Origin: an archaeon | Lineage (GTDB): Archaea; B1Sed10-29; WALL01 | Assembly (NCBI GenBank): GCA_042584585.1 | Contig: JBHOSQ010000005.1 | Location: 1 to 64,000 of the forward strand | DNA length: 64,000 nucleotides | Reading direction: 5' to 3' | Shown: in pieces, positions 1-14,542 of the stretch | How positions within the stretch are numbered: position 1 is the stretch's first letter | Layout of the letters: every line of letters begins with the position of its first letter | Notes under the pieces: generated by a model | Seen by the model: only the letters and a program-made list of their open reading frames with translations | Told to the model about the DNA's origin: nothing | The model's database searches: none | Made by a program: the position numbers and the translations under genes

Positions 1-1470
1 CCCGTAGCCCCAACCGTCCCCGCTGTTCCTGTCGGCGAGCAGGACTTCGGCGAACTAATCGCCGAGAGCGGCATCGCAAAGATTTACAAGACCAGCACCG
101 GCAAAGTCGTCTACAGCGTCCCCGTGCCGAGGCCCACCGGCCCCGAGCGCCAGCTCCTTGACACCATCAAGGAAGCAGCGACGCGGCTCATCACCGTGAC
201 GCCCGAAGAAATCGCGGACCCGAACGAGCGCCGCGCGTTCTTCAAGAAGCGCGTGCTGGAAATAATCGAGGCGTCGCCCGAGCTCGGCGTCGCCCCAACA
301 AAGATTGACTTTTACGCGGACACGATTGTGCGCGAAATGATTGGCTACGGCTCGCTCGACCTATTGCTCGGCGACGACCAGCTGGAAGAAATAATGGTGA
401 TTGGCCCGCACAAGCCGGTCTATGTCTTCCACCGCAAGCACGAAATGATTGCGACCAACGTCGTGTTCGGCAGGGACGACGACATCCGCGCGATTGTGGA
501 CCGAGTTGCCCGGGACGTCGGCAGGCGGATTGACGTCAAAGACCCATTGCTGGACGCGCGCCTCCCGGACGGGTCTCGTGTTAACGCAACCATTCCCCCG
601 ATTTCGCTTGAGGGCTCGACCATCACAATCCGCAAGTTCCGCGAGGACCCGTACACAGTGGTCGACCTAATCAAGTTCGGCACGCTTAACGCCGACTTAG
701 CGGCGTTCCTGTGGATTGCCGCGGAAGGTCTGAAGGCCAAGCCCGCGAACATACTTGTGTCCGGCGGCACCGGCTCCGGAAAGACGACGACACTCAACAC
801 GCTCGCCGCGTTCATCCCGCGCACGGAACGCATCCTCACGATGGAGGACACGGCGGAAATCAAGATTCCGGTGGAGCACTGGATTCGGTTCGAGACCCGC
901 CCCCCTGGAATTGAGGGCACGGGCGAGGTCACGATGGACACGCTCGTCAAGAACTCGCTGCGAATGAGGCCGGACAGGATTGTTGTGGGTGAAGTCCGTG
1001 GCGGGGAAGCGTCCACGCTGTTCACCGCGATGAACACGGGGCACGACGGCTCGTTCGGCACAGTGCACGCGAACGACTCGCGTGAAACTCTCGTCAGGCT
1101 AAAGAGCCCGCCGATGAACGTTCCCGAGCTCATGCTCGCGGCGCTTAACCTAATCATTGTCCAAAAGCGCATCCACGACCGGCGCAAGGGCACCATCAGG
1201 AGGGTGACCGAGGTGGCCGAGGTCACGGGGGTCCTCGAGGGCAATCCCCAGATAATTTATCTTTATGAGTGGGACGCGGCGACGGACACCATCAAGCCTA
1301 CGGGTGTCCCGAGCAAGTTCTTGAACGAGCTGAGCAAGTACACCGGCTTGTCCCACACCGAAATCCAGGCCGAAATCAACCGCCGCAAAGACTTCCTCGA
1401 GCAGATGGTCGAGCAGGAAGTCACGGGCATCACCACGGTGTGCGACAAAATCCACGAGTTTGTAGGATAG
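1..1470 (+). CDS. Type IV pilus assembly ATPase (TadA/CpaF/VirB11 family), 5' partial
   Basis: Frame is open from base 1. Walker A GGTGSGKTT, Asp box EDTAE, LRMRPDRIVVGEVRG and MNTGH motifs are present. Confidence 0.95.
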   Translation, partial: PVAPTVPAVPVGEQDFGELIAESGIAKIYKTSTGKVVYSVPVPRPTGPERQLLDTIKEAATRLITVTPEEIADPNERRAFFKKRVLEIIEASPELGVAPTKIDFYADTIVREMIGYGSLDLLLGDDQLEEIMVIGPHKPVYVFHRKHEMIATNVVFGRDDDIRAIVDRVARDVGRRIDVKDPLLDARLPDGSRVNATIPPISLEGSTITIRKFREDPYTVVDLIKFGTLNADLAAFLWIAAEGLKAKPANILVSGGTGSGKTTTLNTLAAFIPRTERILTMEDTAEIKIPVEHWIRFETRPPGIEGTGEVTMDTLVKNSLRMRPDRIVVGEVRGGEASTLFTAMNTGHDGSFGTVHANDSRETLVRLKSPPMNVPELMLAALNLIIVQKRIHDRRKGTIRRVTEVAEVTGVLEGNPQIIYLYEWDAATDTIKPTGVPSKFLNELSKYTGLSHTEIQAEINRRKDFLEQMVEQEVTGITTVCDKIHEFVG

Positions 1471-1473
1471 ATT

Positions 1474-2745
1474 ATGGCAGAGATACGCAAAATCATAACT
1501 GCCGACGAAAAGGCGAAGAAGGAAGAAGAAGAGCTGAAGAAGCGCCTCGGCCGGGCCAAGGTCGAGAAGCTCCCGACCCGCGGCTACGAGCACGCGAAAG
1601 TCGACGACATCGTCTCGCGCATGAAGCAGCGCTTTGACGCGCGCGGCTACGGAAAAAAAGAGGGCAAGGGCGCGGAGCTCAAGAAAAAAGTCGCTGGCAG
1701 GCGCGCAATGAGCATGGACCAGCGCGACCCGACCGAGCTCGTGCTCGCAAAAGGCGGCTACGCCAAGCTCGTCGGGAAGCTTTACAAGCGGTTCCATTTC
1801 CTCAACGGGTTCAGCGACCGGCTCAGCAAGTACGGCGCCGCCAAAAAAGTCCCGTTCGACCTTGATAAGGCAAACATGAACTACAGCTCCAAGCAGTTCT
1901 TTGCAATGGCCGCGGTCGCGAGCCTTATTGCATGGGGCTTCTCGATTTTCATGATTCTCGCGCTTTCCCTAGCCGTCTTCCCGGCGAGCGTGGCGGAAAT
2001 CGCGGAAAAAGCCGCGGCCCCCGAGTCTCCGCTGGTCGCGATGGCCGTGGCACAAGGGGTTTCGCCGGACCTAATCCAGATGGCCGTCGGGCTACTGCTC
2101 CACGCGGGGCTTGCTTTCCTGCTTTCGTTTGTCGTGATGGTCATGGCAATCGTGGTGTCGATGCAGTGGCCTGCGAACGTCGCGTCGAAGCGCGGGAAAG
2201 CAATCGACAAGGAAATGCCTTTTGCCTTGCGGCACATGGCCACGGAAGTCAAGGCGGGAATCGGCATCCACAAGACCATGGAAAGCATTGTCGAGGCGGA
2301 CTACGGCGAGTTAAGCGTCGAGTTCGACCGGACCCTGCGCGACATTGACAAGGGCATGAGCACCGAGGACGCATTGATGGCAATGAGCCAGCGGGCGCCG
2401 TCGGACAACCTGTCGAAGTCCATCATGCACATGGTTAGGACCCTTAAGACGGGCGGAAATTTGTCCGCCATCATCACGACCATCGCGAGCGAAGTGGCTT
2501 TCGAGCTGCGGATGAAGATGCGCGACTTCGTGGAGCGGCTTAACCTGATTGGGCTTTTTTACATGATGCTCGGCATCGTGGCGCCGGTCTTCGTGGCGGT
2601 GCTTGCCGGAATCCTTAACGCAATCCCGACGATTGGGCTTGCCGGCGTTTTGGGCACGGAAGTATTGTTCTTGATTTACTTCGTGCTGATTCCGATGGCG
2701 CTGTCGCTCATATTGTACATAATAAAAGTAATGCAGCCGATGTGA
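1474..2745 (+). CDS. Type IV pilus platform membrane protein (T2SS-F/TadC-like)
   Basis: 'IDKEMPFALRHMATEVKAG' and 'YGELSVEF' T2SSF-like segments, several TM helices, directly downstream of the ATPase. Confidence 0.88.
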   Translation: MAEIRKIITADEKAKKEEEELKKRLGRAKVEKLPTRGYEHAKVDDIVSRMKQRFDARGYGKKEGKGAELKKKVAGRRAMSMDQRDPTELVLAKGGYAKLVGKLYKRFHFLNGFSDRLSKYGAAKKVPFDLDKANMNYSSKQFFAMAAVASLIAWGFSIFMILALSLAVFPASVAEIAEKAAAPESPLVAMAVAQGVSPDLIQMAVGLLLHAGLAFLLSFVVMVMAIVVSMQWPANVASKRGKAIDKEMPFALRHMATEVKAGIGIHKTMESIVEADYGELSVEFDRTLRDIDKGMSTEDALMAMSQRAPSDNLSKSIMHMVRTLKTGGNLSAIITTIASEVAFELRMKMRDFVERLNLIGLFYMMLGIVAPVFVAVLAGILNAIPTIGLAGVLGTEVLFLIYFVLIPMALSLILYIIKVMQPM

Positions 2746-2746
2746 A

Positions 2747-3604
2747 ATGGGAATTTACGAGAACTACAGCAATGCCGTGAAGTACGTGAACCCGGGGCTT
2801 GAGCCAGACTTCGTCATAGGCATTGCCTTGTTTACGTCAGCGGTTTCCCTGGTCTACGTCGGGCTGTTCATCGACTTGGTCCTTGGCGGGCTTTTGGCCA
2901 TCATGATTTTCGACTTGGCGCTCGGGTACCCGATGTTCATGCGCGACAAGCGCATCACGGAAATCGAGGAGACGCTGCCAGACGTGATGTCGCACATGTC
3001 GACGAGCCTTAGGGCCGGGTCTACCGTGGAATCGGCCTTGAAGGAAGTCGCGAGCTCTGGGTACGGCCCAATCAGCATCGACTTGCGCAACATGCTCCGG
3101 GAAATCAACGAGGGCAAGACGTTCGAGGAAGCGTTCCTTGACTTCGGGAGAAGGACGGAGTCCGTCATCGTGCAGCGCAGCGTGAACGTCATCGTCTCCG
3201 CAAAAAGGACGGGCGGCGGATTGGTGGACGCATTGGCCAGCATTTCAGAGGACATGCGCCAGAACTTGCGCCTGTTCAAGGAGCGGCGCGCCAAAACAAT
3301 GGTCCAGGTTTTGTTCATTGTAGTCGCAGCGAATTTCGTGGCGCCGTTCATCTTCGGATTGGTGGCCGGAATCATTTTGTTCCTCGCGCAGATTGGAGGG
3401 GAGTCCCCGGCGATTTTCGACACCCTGATTTTCTATTTCAAGGGCTACCTCATCGTGTCCGCTTTGTTCTCTGCGATGGCGTCGTCGATGATGCGGGAGG
3501 GCAACATCACGAAGACCGTGATTTACGCCCCGATTCTGCTGGTCATTTCGTACGTCATATTCGTGGCAGTGAATTACTTCGCGAACATCTTCTTTGTCGT
3601 GTAA
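2747..3604 (+). CDS. Type IV pilus platform membrane protein (T2SS-F/TadB-like)
   Basis: 'IEETLPDVMSHMSTSLRAGSTVESAL...YGP' T2SSF signature and TM helices. Confidence 0.88.
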   Translation: MGIYENYSNAVKYVNPGLEPDFVIGIALFTSAVSLVYVGLFIDLVLGGLLAIMIFDLALGYPMFMRDKRITEIEETLPDVMSHMSTSLRAGSTVESALKEVASSGYGPISIDLRNMLREINEGKTFEEAFLDFGRRTESVIVQRSVNVIVSAKRTGGGLVDALASISEDMRQNLRLFKERRAKTMVQVLFIVVAANFVAPFIFGLVAGIILFLAQIGGESPAIFDTLIFYFKGYLIVSALFSAMASSMMREGNITKTVIYAPILLVISYVIFVAVNYFANIFFVV

Positions 3605-3607
3605 TTG

Positions 3608-3649
3608 CGAAACCTTTATAAATACGCCCCACGTTAGCGTAGCTGGAGG
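3608..3649 (+). promoter_or_regulatory. Internal BRE/TATA promoter and Shine-Dalgarno for the probable major pilin
   Basis: CGAAACC-TTTATAAA (TATA at 3615-3622), with GGAGG at 3645-3649 before ATG 3658. Confidence 0.6.
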
Positions 3650-3657
3650 AATCCATC

Positions 3658-4023
3658 ATGAAAAAAGGTCAAGGCTCTTTGGAATATCTCTTAATACTCG
3701 CGGCCATTTTGGCTATTGCCGTGGTTGTCGTGGTGGTGGCGAACTCGCTGCTTTCCGCGCCACAGCAGCAGACCAAGCTTGGCGAAGACAAGTACACCTG
3801 CAGCCTGCAGGGCATCGAGCTCGTCGGCTACAGCACTCCGGGCGTAGTCCCAGGCGTCAAGTACAGTGGAGAGACGTGCACTACAACTGCCACTGACACC
3901 GCCACTGGTGCCTCGTGCACTGTGCACGACGCAAGCGGCAACGATGTAGAGGTCAAGGTTCTGCAGGACCCGAACTCAATCACCTGCCAGTTCGATCCGA
4001 TAACTGCTTCACCCCCGGCATAA
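3658..4023 (+). CDS. Type IV pilin with class III signal peptide, probable major pilin
   Basis: MKKG|QGSLEY followed by a long hydrophobic helix. It has its own promoter and a 3' hairpin. Confidence 0.88.
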   Translation: MKKGQGSLEYLLILAAILAIAVVVVVVANSLLSAPQQQTKLGEDKYTCSLQGIELVGYSTPGVVPGVKYSGETCTTTATDTATGASCTVHDASGNDVEVKVLQDPNSITCQFDPITASPPA

Positions 4024-4055
4024 GAGGAGGGATAATCCCTCCCCTCTTATTTTTT
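4021..4055 (+). terminator. Stem-loop followed by T-run after the pilin gene
   Basis: TAAGAGGAGGGA-TAA-TCCCTCCCCTCTTA (imperfect inverted repeat) followed by TTTTTT. Confidence 0.6.
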
Positions 4056-4080
4056 ATACCACTACCGCCTAGGCTTATCC

Positions 4081-4263
4081 ATGCGCTTGCTTCGTGAGGA
4101 AAGGGCACAGACGAGCCTGGAATACCTTTACCTGACGGCTTTCGTTATCGGCCTCGCCGCGGTGACGGCGGTTCTTGTTACTGATGTAATGCATATCCAG
4201 GAACAGGCCCGGGACCGCGTGGCGGACGTCCGGGACAAGCTCATCGGCAAGCTCACGAAGTGA
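4081..4263 (+). CDS. Small class III signal-peptide pilin
   Basis: ERA|QTSLEY plus hydrophobic helix, 60 aa. Confidence 0.8.
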   Translation: MRLLREERAQTSLEYLYLTAFVIGLAAVTAVLVTDVMHIQEQARDRVADVRDKLIGKLTK

Positions 4264-4269
4264 TCCCAA

Positions 4270-5148
4270 ATGGCTACTGTTCTCCTCGCACTCGCTGGCC
4301 TAGCGTATGCGTCCTTCACCGACCTGAAGGAGCGCATTGTTCCGGACTGGCTGAGCTATTCCATGGTCGCAATCGGCCTCATGTACCACTTGGGGCTCTC
4401 TGTTTTGGAGTGGTCCCTCCACCCATTTCTCCTGTCCGCGGGCGGCGCTGTGCTGGCTTTTGTGTTTGCTTACGCCCTGTGGCGCATTGGGGCGTGGGCT
4501 GGCGGAGACGTCAAGCTCTTCACAGGCCTTGGAGCCCTTGTACCCCTCGTTTTCCCGTTCATAACCTTCCTCAACTCGGTCATCCTGTCCTTTCCGTTCC
4601 TGATGCTCTACGTCTTTGCCAAGACCGCCACTGCCCCGGGCCTCAGGAAAGTGTTCAAGACCATGATTTTCCGCGGCGTGAAGCGCGGTGTTGCACTCGG
4701 CGCGGTCGGGGCACTAATCGCGTTCGTGACAAACCCGGCGCTCACCCCCACAGGGGTCTCCACCGTGTTCGCTTCCGCCCTTTTCATGACTTTGTTCTGG
4801 GAAGTGATGTCTTACGGCAGGGAAAAGGCGCTCCGCTCCCGCATTCCCGTATCCAAACTTGAAGAGGGAATGATTTCGGCGGAATTACTCTACCTCGACA
4901 AGGGAAAGCTAAAGAAATTTACCCCCACTATCGTCCAAAAGCTAATCTTGTTCGAGCCGAAGAAAACAATCGCTTCGTTTTACCAGGCAGCGGGTTTAGA
5001 AAAGAAGGACATCGCGGCCTTGAAGAGGCACGGCGTAAAGTCTCTTTTGGTTAGGGAGTCGATGCCGATGGTTCCCGTGTTGTTTTTGGGTGCTTTGTCC
5101 GCGGAGCTATTCGGGAACTTGGCGCTGTTGTTGTTGGAGATGCTTTGA
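4270..5148 (+). CDS. Prepilin peptidase (A24 family, EppA/FlaK-like)
   Basis: N-terminal 'TDLKERIVPD' Asp motif, 'GGDVK' GxGD motif, C-terminal 'MPMVP', multipass. Confidence 0.9.
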   Translation: MATVLLALAGLAYASFTDLKERIVPDWLSYSMVAIGLMYHLGLSVLEWSLHPFLLSAGGAVLAFVFAYALWRIGAWAGGDVKLFTGLGALVPLVFPFITFLNSVILSFPFLMLYVFAKTATAPGLRKVFKTMIFRGVKRGVALGAVGALIAFVTNPALTPTGVSTVFASALFMTLFWEVMSYGREKALRSRIPVSKLEEGMISAELLYLDKGKLKKFTPTIVQKLILFEPKKTIASFYQAAGLEKKDIAALKRHGVKSLLVRESMPMVPVLFLGALSAELFGNLALLLLEML

Positions 5149-6192
5149 GTATTGCTCAAGAAGTATCCGCCTTATTACCGGCGGGGCCTGCTCGTCCTTG
5201 AATATTTCTTCGTGCTCTTTTATGGCGAGCATTACGTCGGTGAATGGCTGTGAGTAGTACTGGTCTTTTTTCGTGATTAAGTCGAATATGTAGAGCAGCT
5301 TGTTGCCGCTGATGGGGCTGTATCCGCCGTGCTGCTGTGACAGCTTGATGTGCTCTTCGAAGAGCTTCCTCTGCTTTTCGTGGAGCTCGTCGAGTGAAAA
5401 GTCGGCCAAGGCCTTTTCCGTGATTTCTGTAGCCACTTTTTTGCTTTGCTGCTTGCTCCTCCACAGCACGAACAATCCAGCCATCGCAATCACTGCAATG
5501 ATGCCCACGACTATTGGGATGACGTTTTCTTTGGCGACGTCGCCGGCGGATGGGACGTAGGCAATCACCACTGTTTTTTCTTCGGTGTTCCCGCCTGGGT
5601 CCCTTGCTGTAATTGTAACCTCGTTCTCCCCTTCTTTGAGCTCGTGCTCAAACGTGAACACGCCGCTGCGCTCGGCCCAGTACTCGCCGTTGCCAACGGT
5701 GATCTTGACTTGGCAGTTCTCGCGCTCGCCCCAGAACCCCACGAAGTTGTGCCGCTCACACACGGTGGCGGCGTCGGTCCAGCCGCTAATCGTAATCGTC
5801 TGCTCACCGCTCTCGGCGGGCAACTTGTCCACATCAAGCGCAACAGAGTCGTCCCACGACACGACCTCGAACGCGTTGGACAAGTCGTATTCTCCGGGTT
5901 GGGTTGCTTTTAATTCCCAGAGAACTTCCGCTCCAGTTTCAGCCACTAAGGAATCCACAGTAATAGTTTCTGCTTTAGCTTGGACAGAATTCAGTGATTT
6001 GAATTGAGAGACAACATCAAAGGCATTCACTCCCACCCGCGCGTCAAGTTTCACATCTACCACTACAAATTGGTGGTTTTCTGTTAATTCAACGGGATTG
6101 TCCTTAACACCATAACTAAAATCACTCTTCTCCAGCGCGCTGGCTGCCAGTACTGTGCTTATGAGCAGAATGAGCATCAGGCCGCGCTTCAT
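5107..6192 (-). CDS. Secreted/membrane-anchored hypothetical protein with Ig-like segment
   Basis: Signal peptide, 'LKEGENEVTITARDPGGN' Ig-like strand pattern, one TM helix and a cytoplasmic tail. Confidence 0.65.
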   Translation of the reverse strand: MKRGLMLILLISTVLAASALEKSDFSYGVKDNPVELTENHQFVVVDVKLDARVGVNAFDVVSQFKSLNSVQAKAETITVDSLVAETGAEVLWELKATQPGEYDLSNAFEVVSWDDSVALDVDKLPAESGEQTITISGWTDAATVCERHNFVGFWGERENCQVKITVGNGEYWAERSGVFTFEHELKEGENEVTITARDPGGNTEEKTVVIAYVPSAGDVAKENVIPIVVGIIAVIAMAGLFVLWRSKQQSKKVATEITEKALADFSLDELHEKQRKLFEEHIKLSQQHGGYSPISGNKLLYIFDLITKKDQYYSQPFTDVMLAIKEHEEIFKDEQAPPVIRRILLEQYSKHLQQQQRQVPE

Positions 6193-6233
6193 CGACCCTT
6201 ACAAAACGCGCGTGGTTTTTAAGGATTTGCCTG

Positions 6234-7148
6234 TCATACCGGCTCGTAGTACTTCTCTAGGTACGTTCCACCCGTGGTCTCGAGTTGGAGCAAGGTGTCG
6301 CCAGTTCCGGAGACGTAAATGTCTGCGTTGGCGCCTGGCAGGAACGGACTCGTCGGCTGGAGCACAACAGTCAAGTGGCAGTAAGTCGAGTTTTCGTCAG
6401 AGGCAAGCGTCGCGAGCGTCACCATGGCCATGCCGTAGGCGTCGCGGTGGCTCCACTTGTCCGCGGTCTTGCACATGCCCTCGAAGTCTTCGCTCGTGTC
6501 AGGAGCTGAGCTATAAGCCACGAGCACGTCTTGGTCTTCGTAAGTAAAGTAGTGGTCAATCACGAACTCGCCCGTGACTGGAGTGACTTCAAAGAAGTAA
6601 GTGGCATGGCACTGGCTGTTTTCTATGCCGTGTACGGTGTAGCCTAGGCTTTCTTTGTCCCACATCTCGCCCTTGACGCACGCGGGGTTCACGTCAGCCA
6701 ATTCTTGGTAAAACACGCCCATCTTTTCGGCTGTGGAAAGCATGGCGGTCTTCAATTCACCTTGGCAGTACTGCGTGAGGTTCTCGGGGTTGTACACTTC
6801 GCTGTCCATTGGCACGAGGCAGTCCATGGACTTGCCTTCCCACGCGAGGACGCTTGCTTTGAGGTCTTCGGGGTAGTACTGCATTTCAGGAGTGGCGTCG
6901 CTCACGGAGTCGATGCGAAGAATCATGTCGCACATTCCGTCTTTCTCGCCCGCCATGGACATGGAGAACGATGACGCCTCCGTGCCTTGCGTTACTTCGG
7001 CTGGCGCGCAGTCTTCCGCGGCCTCGACAAAGCAAGTCAAGTTGTCCCCGCAGTTAATTGGCTCAGCCTGTCCCTCACCCGAAGGCAACAACAACACTAT
7101 CAACAAGCCGACAATCACGGCGCCAATAACAACAAATTTTATTTCCAT
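6234..7148 (-). CDS. Membrane-anchored Cys-rich extracellular hypothetical protein
   Basis: N-terminal TM, 'CGDNLTCFVEAAEDCAPA' motif, two C-x5-W...CH repeats. Confidence 0.65.
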   Translation of the reverse strand: MEIKFVVIGAVIVGLLIVLLLPSGEGQAEPINCGDNLTCFVEAAEDCAPAEVTQGTEASSFSMSMAGEKDGMCDMILRIDSVSDATPEMQYYPEDLKASVLAWEGKSMDCLVPMDSEVYNPENLTQYCQGELKTAMLSTAEKMGVFYQELADVNPACVKGEMWDKESLGYTVHGIENSQCHATYFFEVTPVTGEFVIDHYFTYEDQDVLVAYSSAPDTSEDFEGMCKTADKWSHRDAYGMAMVTLATLASDENSTYCHLTVVLQPTSPFLPGANADIYVSGTGDTLLQLETTGGTYLEKYYEPV

Positions 7149-7153
7149 CCAAA

Positions 7154-7708
7154 TTACCTCAGTTCTTTTAACAAAGAGAGGTCAAGCCGCCCTGTCGCAG
7201 TTATGTACTCTCCTTTTTTCCAATCTTGTTTGGCCTTCAACCACTTTTTTTCTGTTGAGCCCAATATTCGCCACTTTTTTTCTGTTGAGCCCATTATCGC
7301 CGCATTTTCGACGAAAACAGGGATTCCAGCATCAACCAGCAGCCAATTCTGCTTTCCACCGGATTCATAAATCCGCTTTATTTCTCCCTTAATAGTTTTT
7401 CTGAAACTCTTAACGTCAGACTCTATTTCTTTTTCTTTGGTGGTGATTTGTTCTGGATGGCATATAATCAAAAATGCCACCCAGTTGTTTTTTTTGTTAA
7501 TGTTCTCTAAATAATCGTCAAGATGTTTAAGTGCGTAAGGAAGGAATCCCCTGAAGGTGTTCCCATTTACCTCCATAATTGCATCATCATCACAGCCTTC
7601 GTAGCCTTTCCCTAAATTATGAATTACTCTTTTCAGGACCCCCACGAAGTGATTCTTTTCAAATTCCTTGTAGTCCATGTGATTTTCCCCAAATTCTTTG
7701 TAATCCAT
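7154..7708 (-). CDS. AT-rich hypothetical protein, candidate immunity protein
   Basis: Starts 14 nt after the stop of the toxin-like ORF, with SD AGGTGAG. No signal peptide, AT-rich. Confidence 0.55.
   Translation of the reverse strand: MDYKEFGENHMDYKEFEKNHFVGVLKRVIHNLGKGYEGCDDDAIMEVNGNTFRGFLPYALKHLDDYLENINKKNNWVAFLIICHPEQITTKEKEIESDVKSFRKTIKGEIKRIYESGGKQNWLLVDAGIPVFVENAAIMGSTEKKWRILGSTEKKWLKAKQDWKKGEYITATGRLDLSLLKELR
7241..7293. repeat. Tandem direct repeat, 23-bp identical unit, 30-bp period
   Basis: CCACTTTTTTTCTGTTGAGCCCA at 7241-7263 and 7271-7293, encoding GSTEKKW twice. Confidence 0.9.
7649..7708. repeat. Imperfect 30-bp tandem repeat at gene start
   Basis: Encodes MDYKEFGENH / MDYKEFEKNH. 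Confidence 0.85.
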
Positions 7709-7722
7709 ATACTCACCTTTAT

Positions 7723-9663
7723 CTAAAGTGGTCTTGCCCCAACAACTTCCATGCCATCTGCTTCTAAAACTACCATCATAGGTTTATAGATACCCTTTTT
7801 AGTTTTAAAGTAACTAACTTTAACTAGTCTCCCGCCTTGTGCCAAATCAGGCCGGAGCTCGCCTTTTGACGCCGTTTCTATCACCTTAGACTTAAGCACT
7901 GATTCACTCCAACCATACCTATCGAAGAAGTCCACCAAGTGTTTTCCAACGATGTGGTACTTGAACGTTCCCTGTTTTAGGTAAACGTCTTTTGTGCCGA
8001 TATTCATTTTATTGAACTTGCTGCTTCCTGCTTTTGCCGCGGCGTCCATCACTTCAAACGACTTCTTTGCGCCCCAGATTTGCCCGGCAAACTGCGCGGG
8101 GTTGTGCCATGCCGTCGTCGCGAGGCCAACAACCAAGTCACTCGCGTAGTACCTGACCTTGTCCGCCGCGTCCTGTTCGAACAAGTTCACGTTCTCGACA
8201 ATCACGCAGCCCAATGCGTCCCCAGCGTCCGCAACCAGCGACGGAATCGCGCCGCCGAACCCCTGGATGGCTCCACCCGCAAAGCTAGTGGCCGTCCAAA
8301 GCTGGTTCGCCGCACTGGTGGTGAGGCTGTTCCATATCCCCTGCACGGGATTCACGTTGGCGTTCAACTGCTTCGCAAGGGTTTGCTGGCCAACGTCAAT
8401 CGCGTCCTGTTGATAGTCCACACCCGTCAAGTAAGTGCTTGCGTCGGCTCCAGTGTCCACCACGAATTGCCCCGCAGTGCCGAACCAATTCGCCACCCCC
8501 CGCGCGAAGTTGCTCGCGGGATTCTGCTTGGACATCACACGACACCGGTCAGTCGCCGAAAACCCGGCCATGTGCTTCATTTGGTCGTAATATGGCTCGT
8601 CACGCATCTTCGAAATCGCGTTTTCCTTCAAGTCATAAAAACCGCGGGTGACGCGCTCGCACTTGGCTACGCCCCCAACTAATTGGGAAATAGCTTCCGT
8701 GTCCATGCGGCTGAACCGCAGGTAATTAGAAGGATTAATGTAGTCGTTAAACTCTTTGTTCACAACGCTGCAAGGCGGCCGGATTATGGATTGTTGACCC
8801 GAAACCCAAAGGGCGTGGTCTTGCGTTTCGGCAGAAGACAATGACTCAGCGGCCTCGACTTGTTCGAGGCGCCTCCATAATTCAGTGTCGTCATAGTTCA
8901 GCACGGCAACCAAGGCAGAAGCAACTCTTCCAGAAAGCGAGTCGCTTATTGAGGCAGAGTCGAAAAGCTCTCCTGCCTCTTGCATAGCAAGGCGCTCCAT
9001 TTCTTGCTGGTACTCCGCGTTGGCTGCTGCTGCAGCTTCCTCGTTTTCTTTCATGTGTTGTTCTGCTTTTGCGTTCAGGCCGTGTTGGTAGCTTGTCCAT
9101 TGTGTTGTTGAAATTGTGTCGCCGCTTGAGCTTCCGGCGCATTCGCCCCCGAAAAAGTTCCACGAAAGCGGGACGCCCATGCACTTGTATGCGTCGCCGT
9201 GGAAGCACCGCAGCCCGCCACTCGGGGCGCACTGCATTTCCGTGCCTTTGCACGAGCCGTCCTGGAGGAACATCGTGCCTTGCGAAGAGCCAAAGCAGAC
9301 CCAGCGGACGTTGTTGATGCATTGCTCTTCACTCGGTGAACACGTTGCGCCGGTCAACGCCAGCGACGCCGGCGCAAAAAAAGTGTTGATGGTGTAAAAG
9401 CCGTCGCCGTCAACGGAAAAAGTGCACGAGCCGCCGCCAAACACGCCGGTCACACTGCTGCCCGATTGACCCAAACACGAGACGTCTATTGAGGCGCCCT
9501 CGTCGCTCCAGACCGCGAGCGTACCTGCGCCGGGAAAGTCTTTGGTGAAGCAGCCCGGCTCTGTGCCTGTGACACCTGTGCCGGTGAATTGTATGCATTG
9601 CGCTGCGGCAACCCCGACAAGAAGCAGTACTAGCAGTGCCCTCGCGTGATTTCTCCCCCTCAC
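7723..9663 (-). CDS. Secreted multidomain protein with putative C-terminal RNase-type polymorphic toxin domain
   Basis: Signal peptide, Cys-rich repeats, Ala/Gly-rich helical middle, then a basic AT-rich ~100-aa C-terminus with HIxxxH and terminal 'VVGARP'. Confidence 0.6.
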   Translation of the reverse strand: MRGRNHARALLVLLLVGVAAAQCIQFTGTGVTGTEPGCFTKDFPGAGTLAVWSDEGASIDVSCLGQSGSSVTGVFGGGSCTFSVDGDGFYTINTFFAPASLALTGATCSPSEEQCINNVRWVCFGSSQGTMFLQDGSCKGTEMQCAPSGGLRCFHGDAYKCMGVPLSWNFFGGECAGSSSGDTISTTQWTSYQHGLNAKAEQHMKENEEAAAAANAEYQQEMERLAMQEAGELFDSASISDSLSGRVASALVAVLNYDDTELWRRLEQVEAAESLSSAETQDHALWVSGQQSIIRPPCSVVNKEFNDYINPSNYLRFSRMDTEAISQLVGGVAKCERVTRGFYDLKENAISKMRDEPYYDQMKHMAGFSATDRCRVMSKQNPASNFARGVANWFGTAGQFVVDTGADASTYLTGVDYQQDAIDVGQQTLAKQLNANVNPVQGIWNSLTTSAANQLWTATSFAGGAIQGFGGAIPSLVADAGDALGCVIVENVNLFEQDAADKVRYYASDLVVGLATTAWHNPAQFAGQIWGAKKSFEVMDAAAKAGSSKFNKMNIGTKDVYLKQGTFKYHIVGKHLVDFFDRYGWSESVLKSKVIETASKGELRPDLAQGGRLVKVSYFKTKKGIYKPMMVVLEADGMEVVGARPL

Positions 9664-9710
9664 ACAGTACTAGTGAGTTTTGGTGTATTTAAAACCTGTG
9701 CAGAAAACGT

Positions 9711-10094
9711 TTAAACGTTTTCTGTGCATTGGTCTTCCCAGCCGTCGTAGTGTCCACCCAGCGCATCACAACAGCTTTCTATGCCCCCATATAAGAGGTT
9801 GCAGTTCGCCGGTTCTTTGGAGGCATAAACGTCTTCCTTAAGCGCGCTTCTTGCAGCTTCTTCACATCCATAGCGTTTTGAAGAATCATCGATGTCTTTA
9901 CAAAACGCCGTGCTTTTGTATTGAATTGCTTTTTCGAGTTTGCACTCATATGTCTCGCAGAGTTCACCACTTAAGGTTTCTGATTCAGTTCGTTCTTCGA
10001 TTCCGATGGTTGCGTTTGGACTGCTAATACAGCCACCAAAAAACAACGTTAGGAGTAATACCCCCATAACTAGATTTTTTGTCCTCTCTCCCAT
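9711..10094 (-). CDS. Putative Cys-rich lipoprotein
   Basis: Lipobox-like 'FFGG|C' and a Cys-spaced helical repeat. Confidence 0.6.
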   Translation of the reverse strand: MGERTKNLVMGVLLLTLFFGGCISSPNATIGIEERTESETLSGELCETYECKLEKAIQYKSTAFCKDIDDSSKRYGCEEAARSALKEDVYASKEPANCNLLYGGIESCCDALGGHYDGWEDQCTENV

Positions 10095-10151
10095 AAGGTC
10101 ACCTCACTAAAAATGGGTTAAGGAAACTATTTAAAACTTTCATAAAAACGT

Positions 10152-13100
10152 CTAGATATTTGCCACTGGAGCGTCCGCGAATCTAATCTCGTTGTTAGTC
10201 AAGTCAATCTCAAGGCCAAAGAACTGGATGACGTTGTCGTCCTCTTCTTCTTCATCCTCGGGAGTTCCGCTCATCGGCTTGACGCCGAACGACTCGCTGT
10301 CTGACTTTGTCTCGTTCGTTGGAGTGTAAATCATGAAGCCAGTTAGTTGTTGGGTGCTTTCGGAAGAGCACGTAACTTTCCAGCTCATTGAATCGTACCC
10401 GGAGTTTCCAGCGATAGGCCCAATGTGTCTTGGGTTCTGATAAACAGAATCGATAGAACAGTCAGTAGTGAGATTGACTTTGACATCACCGAAGGATACG
10501 TTTTCTTCGTTGTAGTTGGTAACGTATACTTTAGCCATGAATGGCGTCAGGGTAATCGCGTCCTCTGGCAATATCAAGTCCACCTTGAGGTTCGTGTATA
10601 TACTCGTTACGTTGACCTGGACTCCTACTGGAGTGCCGTACATGCTCGTGTTGTCCATTGCGCGGATGTAAAGCGTGCTCACGCCTTCGGGCACGTTCTT
10701 GAACTCGTGCTTGTAGCTCGTGCCGTTATTGGCGCCTGTTACCGCGTCACTCCATTCAACGCCGTCGAACGAGTACTCGAATTCGTCCAAGTCAGCGTCG
10801 TCGCTGTGGAACGTCACGTTAACGTCGTCAATGTCGTACTGCGGCGTGCCAGTCGGCGCCGTGATAAGTGTCGTTGGACCCTGGTTGTTCACATTCGACC
10901 AAACCATAGAGACGTTCTCGTTGCCCGCCCAGTCAACCGCCTTGATGTAAGTGTACCTAACGCCCTCACTCACGTTATAGAACCACGCTGGGCTTCCGCC
11001 GGGATCCAGTTCCCACTCGCCGTCATCAAGCTTCTGGTAAAACGCCTTCACGTCGCTTGAGCCAGAACTGTAGAGCTCCACCATGGTAGTGGTTCCAGTG
11101 TAATTGCTGTTGTTGCCACCACTCATGGTCAACCCCGGAGCAACCGTGTCCACTGTGATGTTCACGTTCGCCTCGTCCCCAAGGTTCCCGAGCATGTCAT
11201 AAGACCGCACGTAAAGCGTGTGGGCACCATCCGATAGACTGAACGTGTGCGAGTCGCCGCTCTCGACGCTCCAGCCCCCGCTGTCGGCCTGGACCTCGTA
11301 GTAGTCCACGTCTGCCTGGTCGCTGGCGGAGTACTCAAAAAACCCGCTCGTGACATTTGCACCCTCGTTGGGGTAAGTAATCATAATCGTTGGCCCGCTT
11401 TGGTCAATCTCGAAGTCAACCGATACCACGTCGCTCCAAAGGACGAAGTCGGTGCACTTCAAGTAAAGCGTGTGCGTTCCCTCAAGCGTTTGGTTGGTTA
11501 TGGAAGTGACGTTCTGAACGCCGCTCGTCACGTTGAAGTCGCCGTTCCAAACGCCGGCATCCATTTTGTACTGGCACTTCAGCACGGTCTGCTCCGCGTC
11601 CGTTGCAGTGACGTTAATTTCGTCGACGAACAAGTGGTACGAATCAACAACTGGCTCGTTTATCACTGCAGTCGGCGGGCTGTTCAGTGCCGACGTGGCG
11701 TTTACCCTGACGTGGTCCTCACCGGTCTCGGTGGAGTCAGACGCCCGTATCCTGAGCGTGCGCACCCCCGAGGGCAAGAGCGTGAAGTTGTAATCGTAAT
11801 CTGTGTCCGCGCTTATTCCCGTTATCCCGGTGTCTTTCCACAAGCCGCCGTCCACGGCGTACTCGAACTTGACGACGTCGTCGTCTGGCGTGGTGAAGTT
11901 CACGACCGCCCAGTTGTTCGCAGTAACCGTGTCGTTCGCGGGCGAGGTAATGTTAACATCCGGCGCGTGCGAGTCAACGAAAACAGTGACGTTGTCCTCG
12001 GCGCCTTTCTTGCCGGCTTCGTCGACGTGAAGCACGTGCAGTACGTGCCAGCCCTCTGCCAAGTCCTTGAACGCGGATGGCGACCCATTCGGGTCCTTGC
12101 ACCACCGCTCGTTCGCGGTGTCGTTCCAGGTGTTTAGGTAAGGGGTCGGGCAGATTGCGCCGTTGTCCAGCTTGATGAGTGAGTGGTTCACGTCCGTGGC
12201 AGTGGTGTTGTAGTACACGCCAATGTTTGCGTACCCGAAGTGCGTGCTGTTGTCCGGAATGGTTATGAAGATGTCGGGCGGGCCGCTGTCTGGAGTAATT
12301 GTTATGTCCGCTGTGGCAGACGCACCTGCTAAGTCGTCGTCCTTCACGAGAAGAGACACTTTGAAGGTGCCGGTCAGGTTGAATTTGTGGGTGGTTACCG
12401 GGTCGGTCGTGTTCGTGAGCGTGCCGTCGCCCCACTGCCACTCGTAGAAGGCAATGCTGCCGTCCGAGTCGGTGCTGGCCGAGGCGTTGAACGTGAGTTG
12501 GTGCTCTTTTTCACCAGTCAGGGGCGCGGCAAAGTTCGCGTTCGGTGGAGTGTTGCCGGGCGCGTCCGTGATTGTGACGTAGCTCCAGTCGTTGAAGCAC
12601 TTGGGCACTTCCACCTTGACGTATTGGAACGTGGTGTTGTACCCCGGAATGGTGTAGGTGTGGGTCGCCCAAAGCTGGTGGCCGCCGTCGCCCATGCTGG
12701 TGTCCAGGCTCTCAAGGCTCTGCATCCCCGCCTGCACCCAACTAATGTTGTTGTTTGAAGTGTAAACCGTGACGTTGTCTTTGCAGCTGTGGCTTCCGCC
12801 GGACTTGACGTCTACGTTGATGCTGACGTTTTGCGTGATGCTGACTTGGAGGTCGTGGACGTGCCACTTCTGGTACCAGTTGCAGCAGTCAACAGTCCCG
12901 CAGTGTGAGTCGGCTTGGTTGGGCGAGTAGCCTATGCCGTTGTTGCAGCCATCGCGCCATAGTGACGTGTACGTCTTCATCGGCTGGGGGCCGCTGCCTA
13001 CTCCCGTAGTGGGGCTGAATGCCGTGTAACTCTCGGGGTTGGCCGAGTCAGGCATGTGAATCATGATTTGGGCGATTTTTTCGTCCGTGACGAGCGCGAA

Positions 13101-13574
13101 GCGCGTTGGAGTGTCGGGGTTGCCGACTCCTTTCTCCGCCACTTTGTGGAAGAATCCGCCTGCCGAAGCGAAGATTTCTACTTTGCTGGTGTCGCCGTGC
13201 GGCGTCACCTCGAACTCGAAGCGCGTGAGGCCGTCGGTCTCGACTTTGAAGATGTGGTTGTTGTCCAGGTTGCCGCATTTCGTGCCGCTGCAGAACACTT
13301 CTTCCGCGTCCGACACGTCTGGCCCTGTATCAATTGGCTCCGGCGTCGGCTCCGGAGTAGCTTCCGGTGTTGGCACTGGCGTTGCTGTTGGCTCGGGAGT
13401 GGGTGTTGGTGTCACCTGCTGGATTTTTACTTGGTTGTTGACCGCGTCAATCTGGATTTGGAGTGTTTGTAGCAGCTGGCTGAAGTCCGGGCCGATGAAA
13501 GCAAAGGCTGGGCTTAGTAAAATGATAGACATTATCACCGCAACTACGCATCTCCGCATAATTCTCATATGCAA
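10152..13574 (-). CDS. Large secreted surface glycoprotein with PKD and tandem Ig-like repeats
   Basis: Signal peptide, PT/PE linker, PKD motif 'FNASASTDSDGSIAFYEWQWGDG', repeated 'L.EG.HTLYV...D..GN' units, many NxS/T sequons. Confidence 0.8.
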   Translation of the reverse strand: MHMRIMRRCVVAVIMSIILLSPAFAFIGPDFSQLLQTLQIQIDAVNNQVKIQQVTPTPTPEPTATPVPTPEATPEPTPEPIDTGPDVSDAEEVFCSGTKCGNLDNNHIFKVETDGLTRFEFEVTPHGDTSKVEIFASAGGFFHKVAEKGVGNPDTPTRFALVTDEKIAQIMIHMPDSANPESYTAFSPTTGVGSGPQPMKTYTSLWRDGCNNGIGYSPNQADSHCGTVDCCNWYQKWHVHDLQVSITQNVSINVDVKSGGSHSCKDNVTVYTSNNNISWVQAGMQSLESLDTSMGDGGHQLWATHTYTIPGYNTTFQYVKVEVPKCFNDWSYVTITDAPGNTPPNANFAAPLTGEKEHQLTFNASASTDSDGSIAFYEWQWGDGTLTNTTDPVTTHKFNLTGTFKVSLLVKDDDLAGASATADITITPDSGPPDIFITIPDNSTHFGYANIGVYYNTTATDVNHSLIKLDNGAICPTPYLNTWNDTANERWCKDPNGSPSAFKDLAEGWHVLHVLHVDEAGKKGAEDNVTVFVDSHAPDVNITSPANDTVTANNWAVVNFTTPDDDVVKFEYAVDGGLWKDTGITGISADTDYDYNFTLLPSGVRTLRIRASDSTETGEDHVRVNATSALNSPPTAVINEPVVDSYHLFVDEINVTATDAEQTVLKCQYKMDAGVWNGDFNVTSGVQNVTSITNQTLEGTHTLYLKCTDFVLWSDVVSVDFEIDQSGPTIMITYPNEGANVTSGFFEYSASDQADVDYYEVQADSGGWSVESGDSHTFSLSDGAHTLYVRSYDMLGNLGDEANVNITVDTVAPGLTMSGGNNSNYTGTTTMVELYSSGSSDVKAFYQKLDDGEWELDPGGSPAWFYNVSEGVRYTYIKAVDWAGNENVSMVWSNVNNQGPTTLITAPTGTPQYDIDDVNVTFHSDDADLDEFEYSFDGVEWSDAVTGANNGTSYKHEFKNVPEGVSTLYIRAMDNTSMYGTPVGVQVNVTSIYTNLKVDLILPEDAITLTPFMAKVYVTNYNEENVSFGDVKVNLTTDCSIDSVYQNPRHIGPIAGNSGYDSMSWKVTCSSESTQQLTGFMIYTPTNETKSDSESFGVKPMSGTPEDEEEEDDNVIQFFGLEIDLTNNEIRFADAPVANI

Positions 13575-13651: not shown

Positions 13652-14542
13652 TTATGTAAGGTCTATGTGGGCTGTGAGCGTAGAGCCACTAGCCGGAGAG
13701 TGTGTACTGGCTCCTTTCTCGTTGCATAGTACTGCCGTACCGCCCCCGGCACTTATTTCTACGAGGTATACGCCGGTATTCGTGCTTATGGCATTCGTTA
13801 TGCGGGTTGTACTCAAATCAAACTCTAGTTTATCGTTAGTACCAAGATTTTTACCTGAGCCCTCCGAACTCCATCCAGTAGTGTCAAGCCCAGTAAGGCT
13901 GGGAATGAACGTTGTTGAACTATCCGACGTTACGAAAATGTTTGGAGCTGGATTACTGGTTTGGGATTTCTCAAAGTTCAGGGTGAGAGTTGCCGAGCTT
14001 ATAGGATTAGTACCTACCTCATTGAAGTCAAAGAGCAAGTACGCCTTAAGTCCTCCACCAATAATTGTGTCTACACTGCAGACTGGGAATAAACCCGTTT
14101 GGGCTTTGTTTTGGTCGTTGTCGCCGGGATAAAACAGCTCCCACGTCACTTTTTCGGGCGCGCCTTCTCCGTACTGAATCCATCCAGTCTCGGTTTGGAG
14201 CCATGCCGTCCGCGACGCAGCGTCGAACATGAGCGTGTACTGGTCTTGTAGCATGCACGTTTCCACTGCAGCGGTCGAGGGCGCGTCAGTACCCCCCTTC
14301 GTCATCTCTCCCGTGTAGTACGTGATTGACGATGGGGCAGTCAACGGGTCGTTGCCCAAATACGGGTTGGTGTAGCCCTTCAGGCCAAGGTGGTAGTCCC
14401 GGCACTCAATGATGTCGATTTGCACGCCCCGCTGCGTCGCCGCAGGCGTCAGCACGGCGTTCAGAATCAACAAAACGCTTGCGATGAACCCCATCACCGC
14501 AATTATGATCAATAAGTACTCAACTGCTCCCTGGCCCTTCAT
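13652..14542 (-). CDS. Pilin-like protein with class III signal peptide and extra C-terminal beta-sandwich (DNRLRE-like) domain
   Basis: MKG|QGAVEY. C-terminal 'AYLLFDF...ISSATLTL' pattern. Confidence 0.75.
   Translation of the reverse strand: MKGQGAVEYLLIIIAVMGFIASVLLILNAVLTPAATQRGVQIDIIECRDYHLGLKGYTNPYLGNDPLTAPSSITYYTGEMTKGGTDAPSTAAVETCMLQDQYTLMFDAASRTAWLQTETGWIQYGEGAPEKVTWELFYPGDNDQNKAQTGLFPVCSVDTIIGGGLKAYLLFDFNEVGTNPISSATLTLNFEKSQTSNPAPNIFVTSDSSTTFIPSLTGLDTTGWSSEGSGKNLGTNDKLEFDLSTTRITNAISTNTGVYLVEISAGGGTAVLCNEKGASTHSPASGSTLTAHIDLT

Follow-up and report, generated by a model that had tools for sequence, protein, structure and literature searches.

A candidate Sec-exported polymorphic toxin with a predicted BECR-type C-terminal tip and a candidate immunity gene in an archaeal genome

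We analysed a stretch of 64,000 nucleotides (nt) from an archaeon of the lineage B1Sed10-29; WALL01 (assembly GCA_042584585.1, contig JBHOSQ010000005.1, positions 1 to 64,000 of the forward strand), hereafter the window, and focused on two adjacent genes on its minus strand that encode the 646-amino acid (aa) protein P0001 and the 184-aa protein P0002. P0001 has a signal peptide, a Cys-rich domain, a long middle region and a basic C-terminal tip; it belongs to a mosaic family, its DNA changes composition abruptly at the tip, and the tip is linked through a two-tip profile to the toxin in PDB entry 7M5F. We consider it fairly likely that P0001 is a Sec-exported polymorphic toxin of three modules with a BECR ribonuclease (RNase) tip, which P0002 would neutralise in the producing cell. 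The window is archaeal by its marker genes (RLI/ABCE1, aRF1/Pelota-like, TYW3, RFC and a class III signal pilin). The genome that contains it, G000, is an assembly of 1.02 Mb in 32 contigs that is 84% complete, and the other 30 genomes of the class measure 0.3-1.3 Mb; given these sizes the host is presumed to be a reduced-genome, DPANN-like archaeon. The features of the locus, in window positions, are as follows.

7723-9663, minus strand: P0001, the 646-aa candidate toxin gene, an open reading frame (ORF)
9598..9663, minus strand: signal peptide, residues 1-22 of P0001, ending in AAA before QC, by hydropathy
9049..9597, minus strand: conserved Cys-rich N-terminal extracellular domain, residues 23-205, the shared module of the family
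8044..9048, minus strand: acidic region in the middle (residues 206-540), Ala/Gly-rich in part and unique to P0001
7726..8043, minus strand: C-terminal tip, residues 541-646, basic and low in GC, a predicted BECR-fold RNase-like toxin domain
7154..7708, minus strand: P0002, a 184-aa cytoplasmic orphan ORF, candidate immunity protein by position and low GC
6234..7148, minus strand: P0005, a Cys-rich protein anchored in the membrane by its N-terminus, third gene of a triad, by identity to P0012

An earlier note, made from the DNA letters alone, had proposed a toxin-immunity pair here, and its two ORFs were recovered as described, 646 aa and 184 aa long with a spacer of 14 nt, in which a Shine-Dalgarno-like AAGGTGA stands 6-7 nt before the P0002 ATG. 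The Sec signal peptide that it assigned to the longer ORF fits, as judged by hydropathy alone: residues 9-27 are the sole strongly hydrophobic segment of P0001 (hydropathy peak 2.13) and are followed by AAA and QC, and the same N-terminal signal layout is present in all five aligned family members, P0001 included. The domain behind the signal peptide has 12 Cys at residues 23-175 which are invariant in the family alignment. The paired Cys repeats of the earlier description were roughly right, in that a C-x6-C-x7-C unit is found twice, from residues 108 and 138; its 'C.P....C' spelling holds only once, at 108. No match to this domain was obtained in Pfam or NCBIfam, nor in PDB with a profile of the whole family.

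The middle region of P0001 has an isoelectric point (pI) of 4.50 and no internal hydrophobic segment. Its residues 381-540 are 27% Ala and Gly, and the 'NPAQFAGQIWG' said to close an Ala/Gly-rich stretch begins at residue 521. Residues 206-540 have no relative among 1.84 billion cluster representatives searched with phmmer or in the all-against-all BLAST of the family; because of this, and because conservation is confined to residues 1-205, the suggestion that residues 200-540 form the conserved carrier was wrong. The carrier does not resemble those of RHS, CdiA or LXG toxins, as had been judged by eye; P0001 has no Pfam or NCBIfam match. About 50 residues ahead of the tip the middle reads VENVN (residues 489-493, window 8185-8199), which we take to resemble the VENN motif preceding CdiA toxin regions; the PT-VENN family gave no Pfam match on P0001.

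Sequence and predicted fold of the C-terminal tip

The tip reads 'YHIVGKH' from residue 569 and 'EVVGARPL' from residue 639, and contains His570, His575 and Arg612. It has one archaeal relative, the C-terminus of the family member P0010 (BLASTP E 3e-4 in a single pairwise comparison), and none of 2000 shuffles equalled the real phmmer score between the two. The P0010 tip alone matched chain C of 7M5F (7m5f_C, 'Toxin CdiA') at E 1.7e-5 with 28 bits, and a two-tip profile of P0001 and P0010 matched it at E 6.8e-8 with 36 bits (profile positions 21-114, chain residues 49-136), so that the addition of the P0001 tip raises the score by 8 bits. The two-tip profile also found a haemagglutinin-repeat protein of Kingella negevensis, whose final ~105 residues can be aligned with the P0001 tip along its full length. 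A scan of species genomes yielded 5 bacterial loci, 4 of them with a full tip (Neisseria, two Eggerthellaceae and Rhizobiales). The bacterial relatives are C-termini of haemagglutinin-repeat (CdiA-type) proteins followed by genes of the CdiI(7M5F) family, and the ORFs downstream of the bacterial tips match 7m5f_A at E 1.7e-11.

Aligned with hhalign, the 2 archaeal and 4 bacterial tips gave a probability of 97.7% (E 1.5e-12, 85 columns). The six-tip alignment is colinear to the last residues, has 14 invariant columns that include His570 and His575, and ends in G-A-x-P. His570 and His575 align with the paired His of the family and Arg612 with one of its Arg; by counting along HIVEEH we take these to be H47, H52 and R89 of 7M5F. 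The likeness to BECR tips seen earlier in the HIxxxH motif and the terminal (T/G)AxP is supported, both aligning with 7M5F, a solved BECR-fold toxin of contact-dependent inhibition (CDI). On these alignments, the tip of P0001 probably belongs to the 7M5F toxin family. Across the 31 genomes of the class the two-tip profile matched in G000 only, and a word search with the tip for longer proteins in 5.8 billion clusters returned only P0001 itself. A weak hidden Markov model (HMM) match on contig 5 at ~67.4 kb was discarded as chance, being an SPFH-like protein, and the EndoU_bacteria family (PF14436) had no match on the tip at E ≤ 1.

The fold of the tip was modelled with AlphaFold2 (AF2). With the six aligned tips as input, pLDDT was 75.5 and pTM 0.70, and the model shows a beta-hairpin, two helices and four strands. 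Foldseek of this model against 350,542 chains placed 7m5f_C first (probability 0.99, TM-score 0.51, E 0.038) and the CDI tRNase toxins 6CP9, 5I4Q and 5I4R at ranks 2-7, with no match at E ≤ 0.001. VIA-align against 48,161 representative chains also placed 7m5f_C first (Z 5.9, root-mean-square deviation 3.4, 82 aligned residues), and its best 25 matches were all of BECR/RelE/ParE type, including MqsR, CDI toxins, RelE, YoeB, HigB2, colicin D and E5 domains and Nsp15. The model in the ESM Atlas, which was made without the six-tip alignment, has EndoU_bacteria (TM-score 0.65 by query), LXG and RHS C-termini as structural neighbours and Ntox35 clusters as feature neighbours (0.89 and 0.88); all of these lie below the bar that the tool sets for naming a family and serve as leads only.

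Mosaic family, composition break and the three-gene locus

The phmmer search returned 5 proteins including P0001, with matches confined to query residues 2-216. Among them is an in-genome paralogue, P0007 (G000 contig 9), which is 79% identical to P0001 over residues 1-205; the DNA of the two is 83% identical over 590 nt, after which similarity ends sharply. P0007 and P0008 are 41% identical across residues 1-618, beyond which they diverge, P0009 consists of the N-terminus of P0010 (71%) joined to the middle of a toxin from the genome G003, and in both G003 toxins that middle follows another N-terminal domain. None of the 4 other proteins that have the N-terminal domain of P0001 shares its middle, and only P0010 shares its tip, weakly. 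N-terminal domains, middles and tips thus recombine independently by all-against-all BLAST, and homologues with variable C-termini, as expected from the earlier note, do exist, with the shared residues 1-205 joined to different middles and tips. When genome contigs were first scanned with a pattern of the N-terminal domain, none of the 134 candidates was confirmed.

A further case is G003 contig 14 (locus L008), with features at 1-756(-), 696-1061(-) and 1063-3048(-), which encodes a full toxin, a 121-aa ORF and then an orphan C-terminal module. The orphan module is 54% identical over 143 aa to the upstream full gene and then diverges into another tip. By eye, the tip of the full toxin at this locus looks like a PD-(D/E)xK domain. 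P0013 (L005:1-1599(+)) carries this 12-Cys N-terminal domain in fusion with a Peptidase_M64 domain that has the HExxH motif; the gene that follows this fusion encodes a secreted, C-terminally anchored 389-aa protein and not a small cytoplasmic ORF. The middles of P0007-P0009 have 2-3 conserved Gly-rich hydrophobic segments (GAACAGTWWALGGACWVTG...), for example at residues 420-498 of P0007, whereas P0001 and P0010 are without them. These segments may be membrane-inserting elements, and owing to this difference the members of the family may differ in how they cross a membrane.

The composition of the DNA changes within P0001. GC content is 0.573 over 8051-9663, 0.408 over 7154-8050 and 0.552 genome-wide, and a GC as low as that of the block of tip and P0002 is found in only 0.27% of 3311 genome segments of 900 nt. 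The tip has a pI of 9.82 against ~4.5 for the remainder of P0001, in line with the abrupt switch to AT-rich DNA encoding a basic domain that had been noticed from the letters. The tip and the small ORF lie ~10 GC points below their surroundings in all three loci measured (cassette against rest: 0.41 vs 0.57, 0.51-0.53 vs 0.59-0.66, and 0.46 vs 0.55). As the GC break and the start of the similarity to P0010 coincide, the recombination junction is placed at about residue 540. The genome G002 of the same genus retains the type IV pilus locus of window 1-5148 with 70-79% DNA identity, and this match ends at window 5300. The stretch 5300-10465 has no DNA match in G002, which carries a gene like P0004, the surface-protein gene upstream, on another contig, and the genome G001 matches only 5576-5898 within it, so that the region around the block is a variable one. 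A piece of ~130-170 nt near window 14360-14534 recurs on several contigs of G002 and G001.

The order of a toxin gene, a small ORF and a P0005-like anchored Cys-rich protein recurs in six loci, namely the window, G000 contig 9, the metagenome locus L003 and G003 contigs 4, 14 and 98. The small ORFs are of 184, 208, 164, 242, 121 and 174 aa. No pair of them was similar at E < 0.1 in a BLAST comparison that covered 5 of the 6, the 174-aa ORF of L013 (G003 contig 98) being excluded. All three downstream ORFs examined, P0002 included, are without a hydrophobic segment, as fits the cytoplasmic location first proposed for the 184-aa protein. What stands of the proposed immunity gene is its position and the presence of a differing small ORF at each locus; P0002 itself is an orphan and is unrelated to CdiI. 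P0005 is 30% identical (E 4e-45) to P0012, which occupies the same position in L003, and G000 has two genes of the P0005 family, both adjoining toxin genes.

Further observations concern individual members of these triads. In P0002, a 30-nt unit is repeated 2.3 times (GSTEKKW..., window 7241-7308), and MDYKEF..NH is doubled at the N-terminus (window 7679-7708), for which reason the true start of P0002 may be the second Met. Weak matches to one region of PDB entry 3F44 ('putative monooxygenase') were obtained with P0002 residues 32-111 (E 0.018), with tip profile positions 26-87 (E 0.096) and with the P0010 tip (E 0.0041); in this region P0002 has ALKHLDDYLEN where the tip reads VGKHLVDFFDR, possibly by chance. 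The features of L013 lie at 2-967(+), 980-1504(+), 1504-2451(+) and 2512-2808(+). By eye, its toxin has a middle like that of P0010 and a tip ending in ...VTAIAHPY, its 174-aa ORF has an internal repeat, and a further toxin gene directly follows the P0005-like gene.

A secreted nuclease that scavenges nutrients from environmental or host RNA, with P0002 serving only for self-protection as in barnase-barstar and no contact-dependent killing, would be accommodated equally well by the signal peptide, the basic BECR-like tip and the cytoplasmic downstream ORF. It would also suit a biosynthetically poor cell with a small genome (1.02 Mb at 84% completeness), and the secreted M64 metallopeptidase on the N-terminal domain in L005 makes that domain look more like a carrier of hydrolases than part of a weapon. 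However, diversification driven by conflict is indicated by the way tips are shuffled, by downstream ORFs that are unrelated to one another, by cassettes of low GC and by the orphan module; the closest relatives of the tip end CdiA-type proteins accompanied by CdiI genes, and the block is missing from the genome of the same genus. We regard scavenging as improbable.

Proposed mechanism, points against it and the genomic neighbourhood

For the polymorphic toxin that we favour, we infer the enzymatic activity, immunity, delivery route and target as follows. The first module (residues 23-205) would be a disulfide-rich extracellular domain for surface display, targeting or receptor binding, the second (residues 206-540) a unique acidic linker or translocation region, and the third (residues 541-646) a basic BECR-fold domain of the CdiA-CT BWH57 (7M5F) type. 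The tip would act as a metal-independent RNase using His570, His575 and Arg612. Tip and P0002 may have been gained together as a low-GC cassette via recombination at about residue 540. P0002 would bind and block the tip in the cytoplasm of the producer before export, and P0005 may be an accessory that acts at the cell surface with the N-terminal domain of P0001. The tip would have to reach the cytoplasm of another cell, either a neighbour or a host.

A number of results weigh against this proposal. Taken alone, the P0001 tip had no Pfam match at E ≤ 1 and no match to 7M5F in PDB, and hhalign of it against the bacterial tips gave only 3.5% (E 0.012). An HMM of the tip family built without P0001 placed the P0001 ORF 5th (E 7.1) among the 10,630 ORFs of the genome, and with a bacteria-only HMM the ORF was not among the 8 matches listed; when the two HMMs were tested with 2000 shuffles each, 2 and 4 of these reached the real score. 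Glu51 of 7M5F is replaced by Lys574 in the P0001 tip, and the Ntox35 model (PF15534) had no match on the tip at E ≤ 1 or in G000 at E ≤ 10. The AF2 model from the single sequence (pLDDT 63) gave unrelated Foldseek matches and no BECR fold, which was also absent from the 50 VIA-align matches listed. Every VIA-align Z is <6, below the level that the tool states for chance arrangements, and the BECR result depends on the family alignment; with low Z and a model that leans on that alignment, the predicted fold counts as consistency and not as independent proof. RNase activity of the 7M5F family is not documented in the literature found, in the portions available, and no later biochemical paper appeared there. 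No machinery known to secrete or deliver toxins of this kind was found, and the window holds no orphan toxin/immunity cassette.

The candidate immunity protein adds further points of this kind. A word-based search with P0002 in 5.8 billion clusters returned only itself, and the four closest genomes held nothing significant (best E 0.037). With hhalign against the bacterial downstream ORFs, which belong to the CdiI family, P0002 and P0011 gave probabilities of 0.07% and 0.18%. P0002 has a pI of 8.4 and so is not acidic, carries two in-frame tandem duplications, and has a poorly predicted fold. The ESM Atlas gave no lead for it (best score 0.79, TM-score ≤0.34), and co-folding of tip and P0002 (score 0.00, partner pLDDT <50) is evidence neither way. 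Searches of P0001, P0002, P0003 (the small gene upstream of P0001) and P0005 against Pfam, NCBIfam and PADLOC, and of P0001, P0002 and the tip alone against PDB sequences, returned nothing meaningful.

Many of these points would be expected if P0001 served at the surface or in adhesion and its C-terminal domain were no enzyme, P0002 being an unrelated or decaying orphan ORF and the likeness to toxins only that of a small alpha+beta arrangement: the tip alone lacks a significant match, the Z values are low, no BECR fold appears in the model from the single sequence, P0002 has tandem repeats and no relative, and the neighbouring genes encode surface proteins. Against this stand the gain of 8 bits towards 7M5F on adding the P0001 tip, a shuffle p of ~0.002 or less, and the conservation of both His, the Arg and the terminal VVGA-P in an end-to-end alignment. 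The change in composition coincides exactly with the first residues of the tip, and a small cytoplasmic ORF occupies the same position in 6 loci. A non-enzymatic surface or adhesion protein is quite improbable in our judgement.

The genes around the pair belong to a run of surface-protein genes on the minus strand in the order P0004, P0003, P0001, P0002, P0005 and a 361-aa immunoglobulin (Ig)-like protein. The neighbouring features are as follows.

10152..13574, minus strand: P0004, a 1140-aa surface protein with PKD/Ig repeats (PKD_4, E 5.6e-15)
9711..10094, minus strand: P0003, a small lipoprotein-like Cys-rich flank protein upstream of P0001, by translation, with an FFGGC start
9686..9693, minus strand: TTTAAATA, a TATA-box-like element that ends 22 nt before the P0001 GTG start
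5107-6192, minus strand: Ig-like protein, 361 aa
1..5148, plus strand: type IV pilus locus, by Pfam (ATPase, 2 T2SSF proteins, class III signal pilin and prepilin peptidase)

The counterpart of P0004 in L003 is an 891-aa ORF with 32% identity over 922 aa, and the flank of L003 has no homologue of P0003. P0003, which begins with a lipobox-like FFGGC, is the flanking lipoprotein that had been seen at 9711. The element TTTAAATA, which we liken to the archaeal TATA consensus, suggests by its letters and position that P0001 may have its own promoter and a near-leaderless mRNA.

The type IV pilus locus is also present at 1-5148 as described, and the earlier note had offered that the toxin might be passed on through contact made by this pilus. 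Adjacency is the one point in favour. The toxin genes are on the opposite strand with another surface-protein gene in between, the in-genome paralogue adjoins TrbC/VirB2-like pilin genes and no type IV pilus, and G002 keeps the pilus locus with no match to window 5300-10465. As nothing ties the toxin to the pilus, we dropped this route as very improbable. At the locus of the paralogue (L006, G000 contig 9, 8000-22000), the toxin genes are divergent to the TrbC/VirB2-like pilin genes and to a 541-aa Ig-like protein; features lie at 3257-3547(-) and 705-1724(-), and the pilin matches are PF18895 (E 1.1e-10) and PF04956 (E 7.6e-8). A homologous membrane protein is also found upstream of the toxin on G003 contig 4.

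A wider reading, which we put forward tentatively and hold to be unlikely, is that this archaeal lineage has a polymorphic-toxin system specific to it, with a delivery logic of its own, tips borrowed from bacterial CDI toxins and newly evolved immunity proteins, directed against host or rival cells. The N-terminal module and a dedicated anchored partner of the P0005 family would then display or translocate interchangeable middles and tips, crossing the archaeal envelope independently of the bacterial type V, VI and VII routes, and the toxins would let a reduced-genome symbiont control or exploit its host.

Comparison with known systems

The closest known system is the CdiA-CT/CdiI complex of Serratia marcescens BWH57, which is the content of 7M5F, was CASP14 target H1065 and has a BECR fold; the candidate active-site residues are H47, E51, H52 and R89, and the activity is described as not easily predicted, as given in the available part of its description (PMC8616854). 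The P0001 tip resembles this toxin in that ~90 residues align and the paired His, the Arg and the terminal VVGA strand are kept, and a candidate immunity gene likewise lies directly downstream. Unlike the CdiA-CT/CdiI pair, P0001 occurs in an archaeon, which has no outer membrane, P0002 has 184 aa against 98 aa in the CdiI family, and the sequence link of P0001 holds only via the two-tip profile. In P0001 and its four neighbours, searched against Pfam and NCBIfam (for P0001 at E ≤ 1), no two-partner secretion (TPS) domain, haemagglutinin repeats or CdiB were found. A CDI system proper was hence rejected for want of CdiB, filamentous haemagglutinin (FHA) repeats and a TPS domain, and a classical toxin-antitoxin pair was rejected since the tip shares one reading frame with an exported protein.

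Barnase is a Sec-exported RNase of the BECR superfamily whose cytoplasmic inhibitor, barstar, is encoded in the producer. P0001 and P0002 resemble this pair in combining a predicted BECR-type tip on an exported protein with a candidate cytoplasmic inhibitor. Barnase differs from P0001 in being a single domain, without carrier, mosaicism or cassette exchange, and no sequence match between them was seen.

With the polymorphic toxins of Zhang et al. 2012, as far as the consulted portions of that paper describe them, P0001 shares the secreted multi-domain layout with an N-terminal trafficking part and a C-terminal domain exchanged by recombination; P0002 is a candidate for their downstream immunity gene, and the one orphan module on G003 contig 14 may correspond to their orphan cassettes (PMC3482391). 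P0001 differs in that its N-terminal domain, its middle and P0002 match no described family in Pfam or NCBIfam, each locus has a P0005-like third gene, and the middles are shuffled too. Ntox35 (PF15534) is predicted there to be a toxin of the BECR type that has 'H, KH' and two histidines near its N-terminus (PMC3482391), and the tip, which reads H-IVG-KH, shows the 'H, KH' motif by eye only. According to the same portions, classical polymorphic toxins are rare in archaea and most immunity families are absent there (PMC3482391). Archaeal loci with colicin D and PD-(D/E)xK tips have been described with DUF4157 proteases as their signature, in the part of the source available (PMC6393860). P0001 had no match to DUF4157, as no Pfam family reached it at E ≤ 0.079. 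Makarova et al. 2019 (mBio 10:e00715-19) reportedly surveyed the polymorphic toxins of archaea; that survey lay outside our comparison, and the accessible portions of the literature on DPANN archaea held no report of a toxin-immunity cassette.

If our reading of P0001 and P0002 is true, reduced-genome archaea bear bacterial-type RNase warheads, with carrier, accessory and immunity proteins that are all undescribed, and the locus would make it possible to test in what way these cells antagonise their neighbours and hosts or manipulate them. As new protein families it would add the surface domain with its 12 Cys, the family of P0005 and orphan proteins that inhibit BECR nucleases. The locus suggests that such archaea fight their neighbours with bacterial-style weapons mounted on a carrier of their own. 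The polymorphic-toxin logic and the probable family of the warhead are known; the carrier, the accessory gene and the immunity candidate, in a reduced-genome archaeon, appear to be new.

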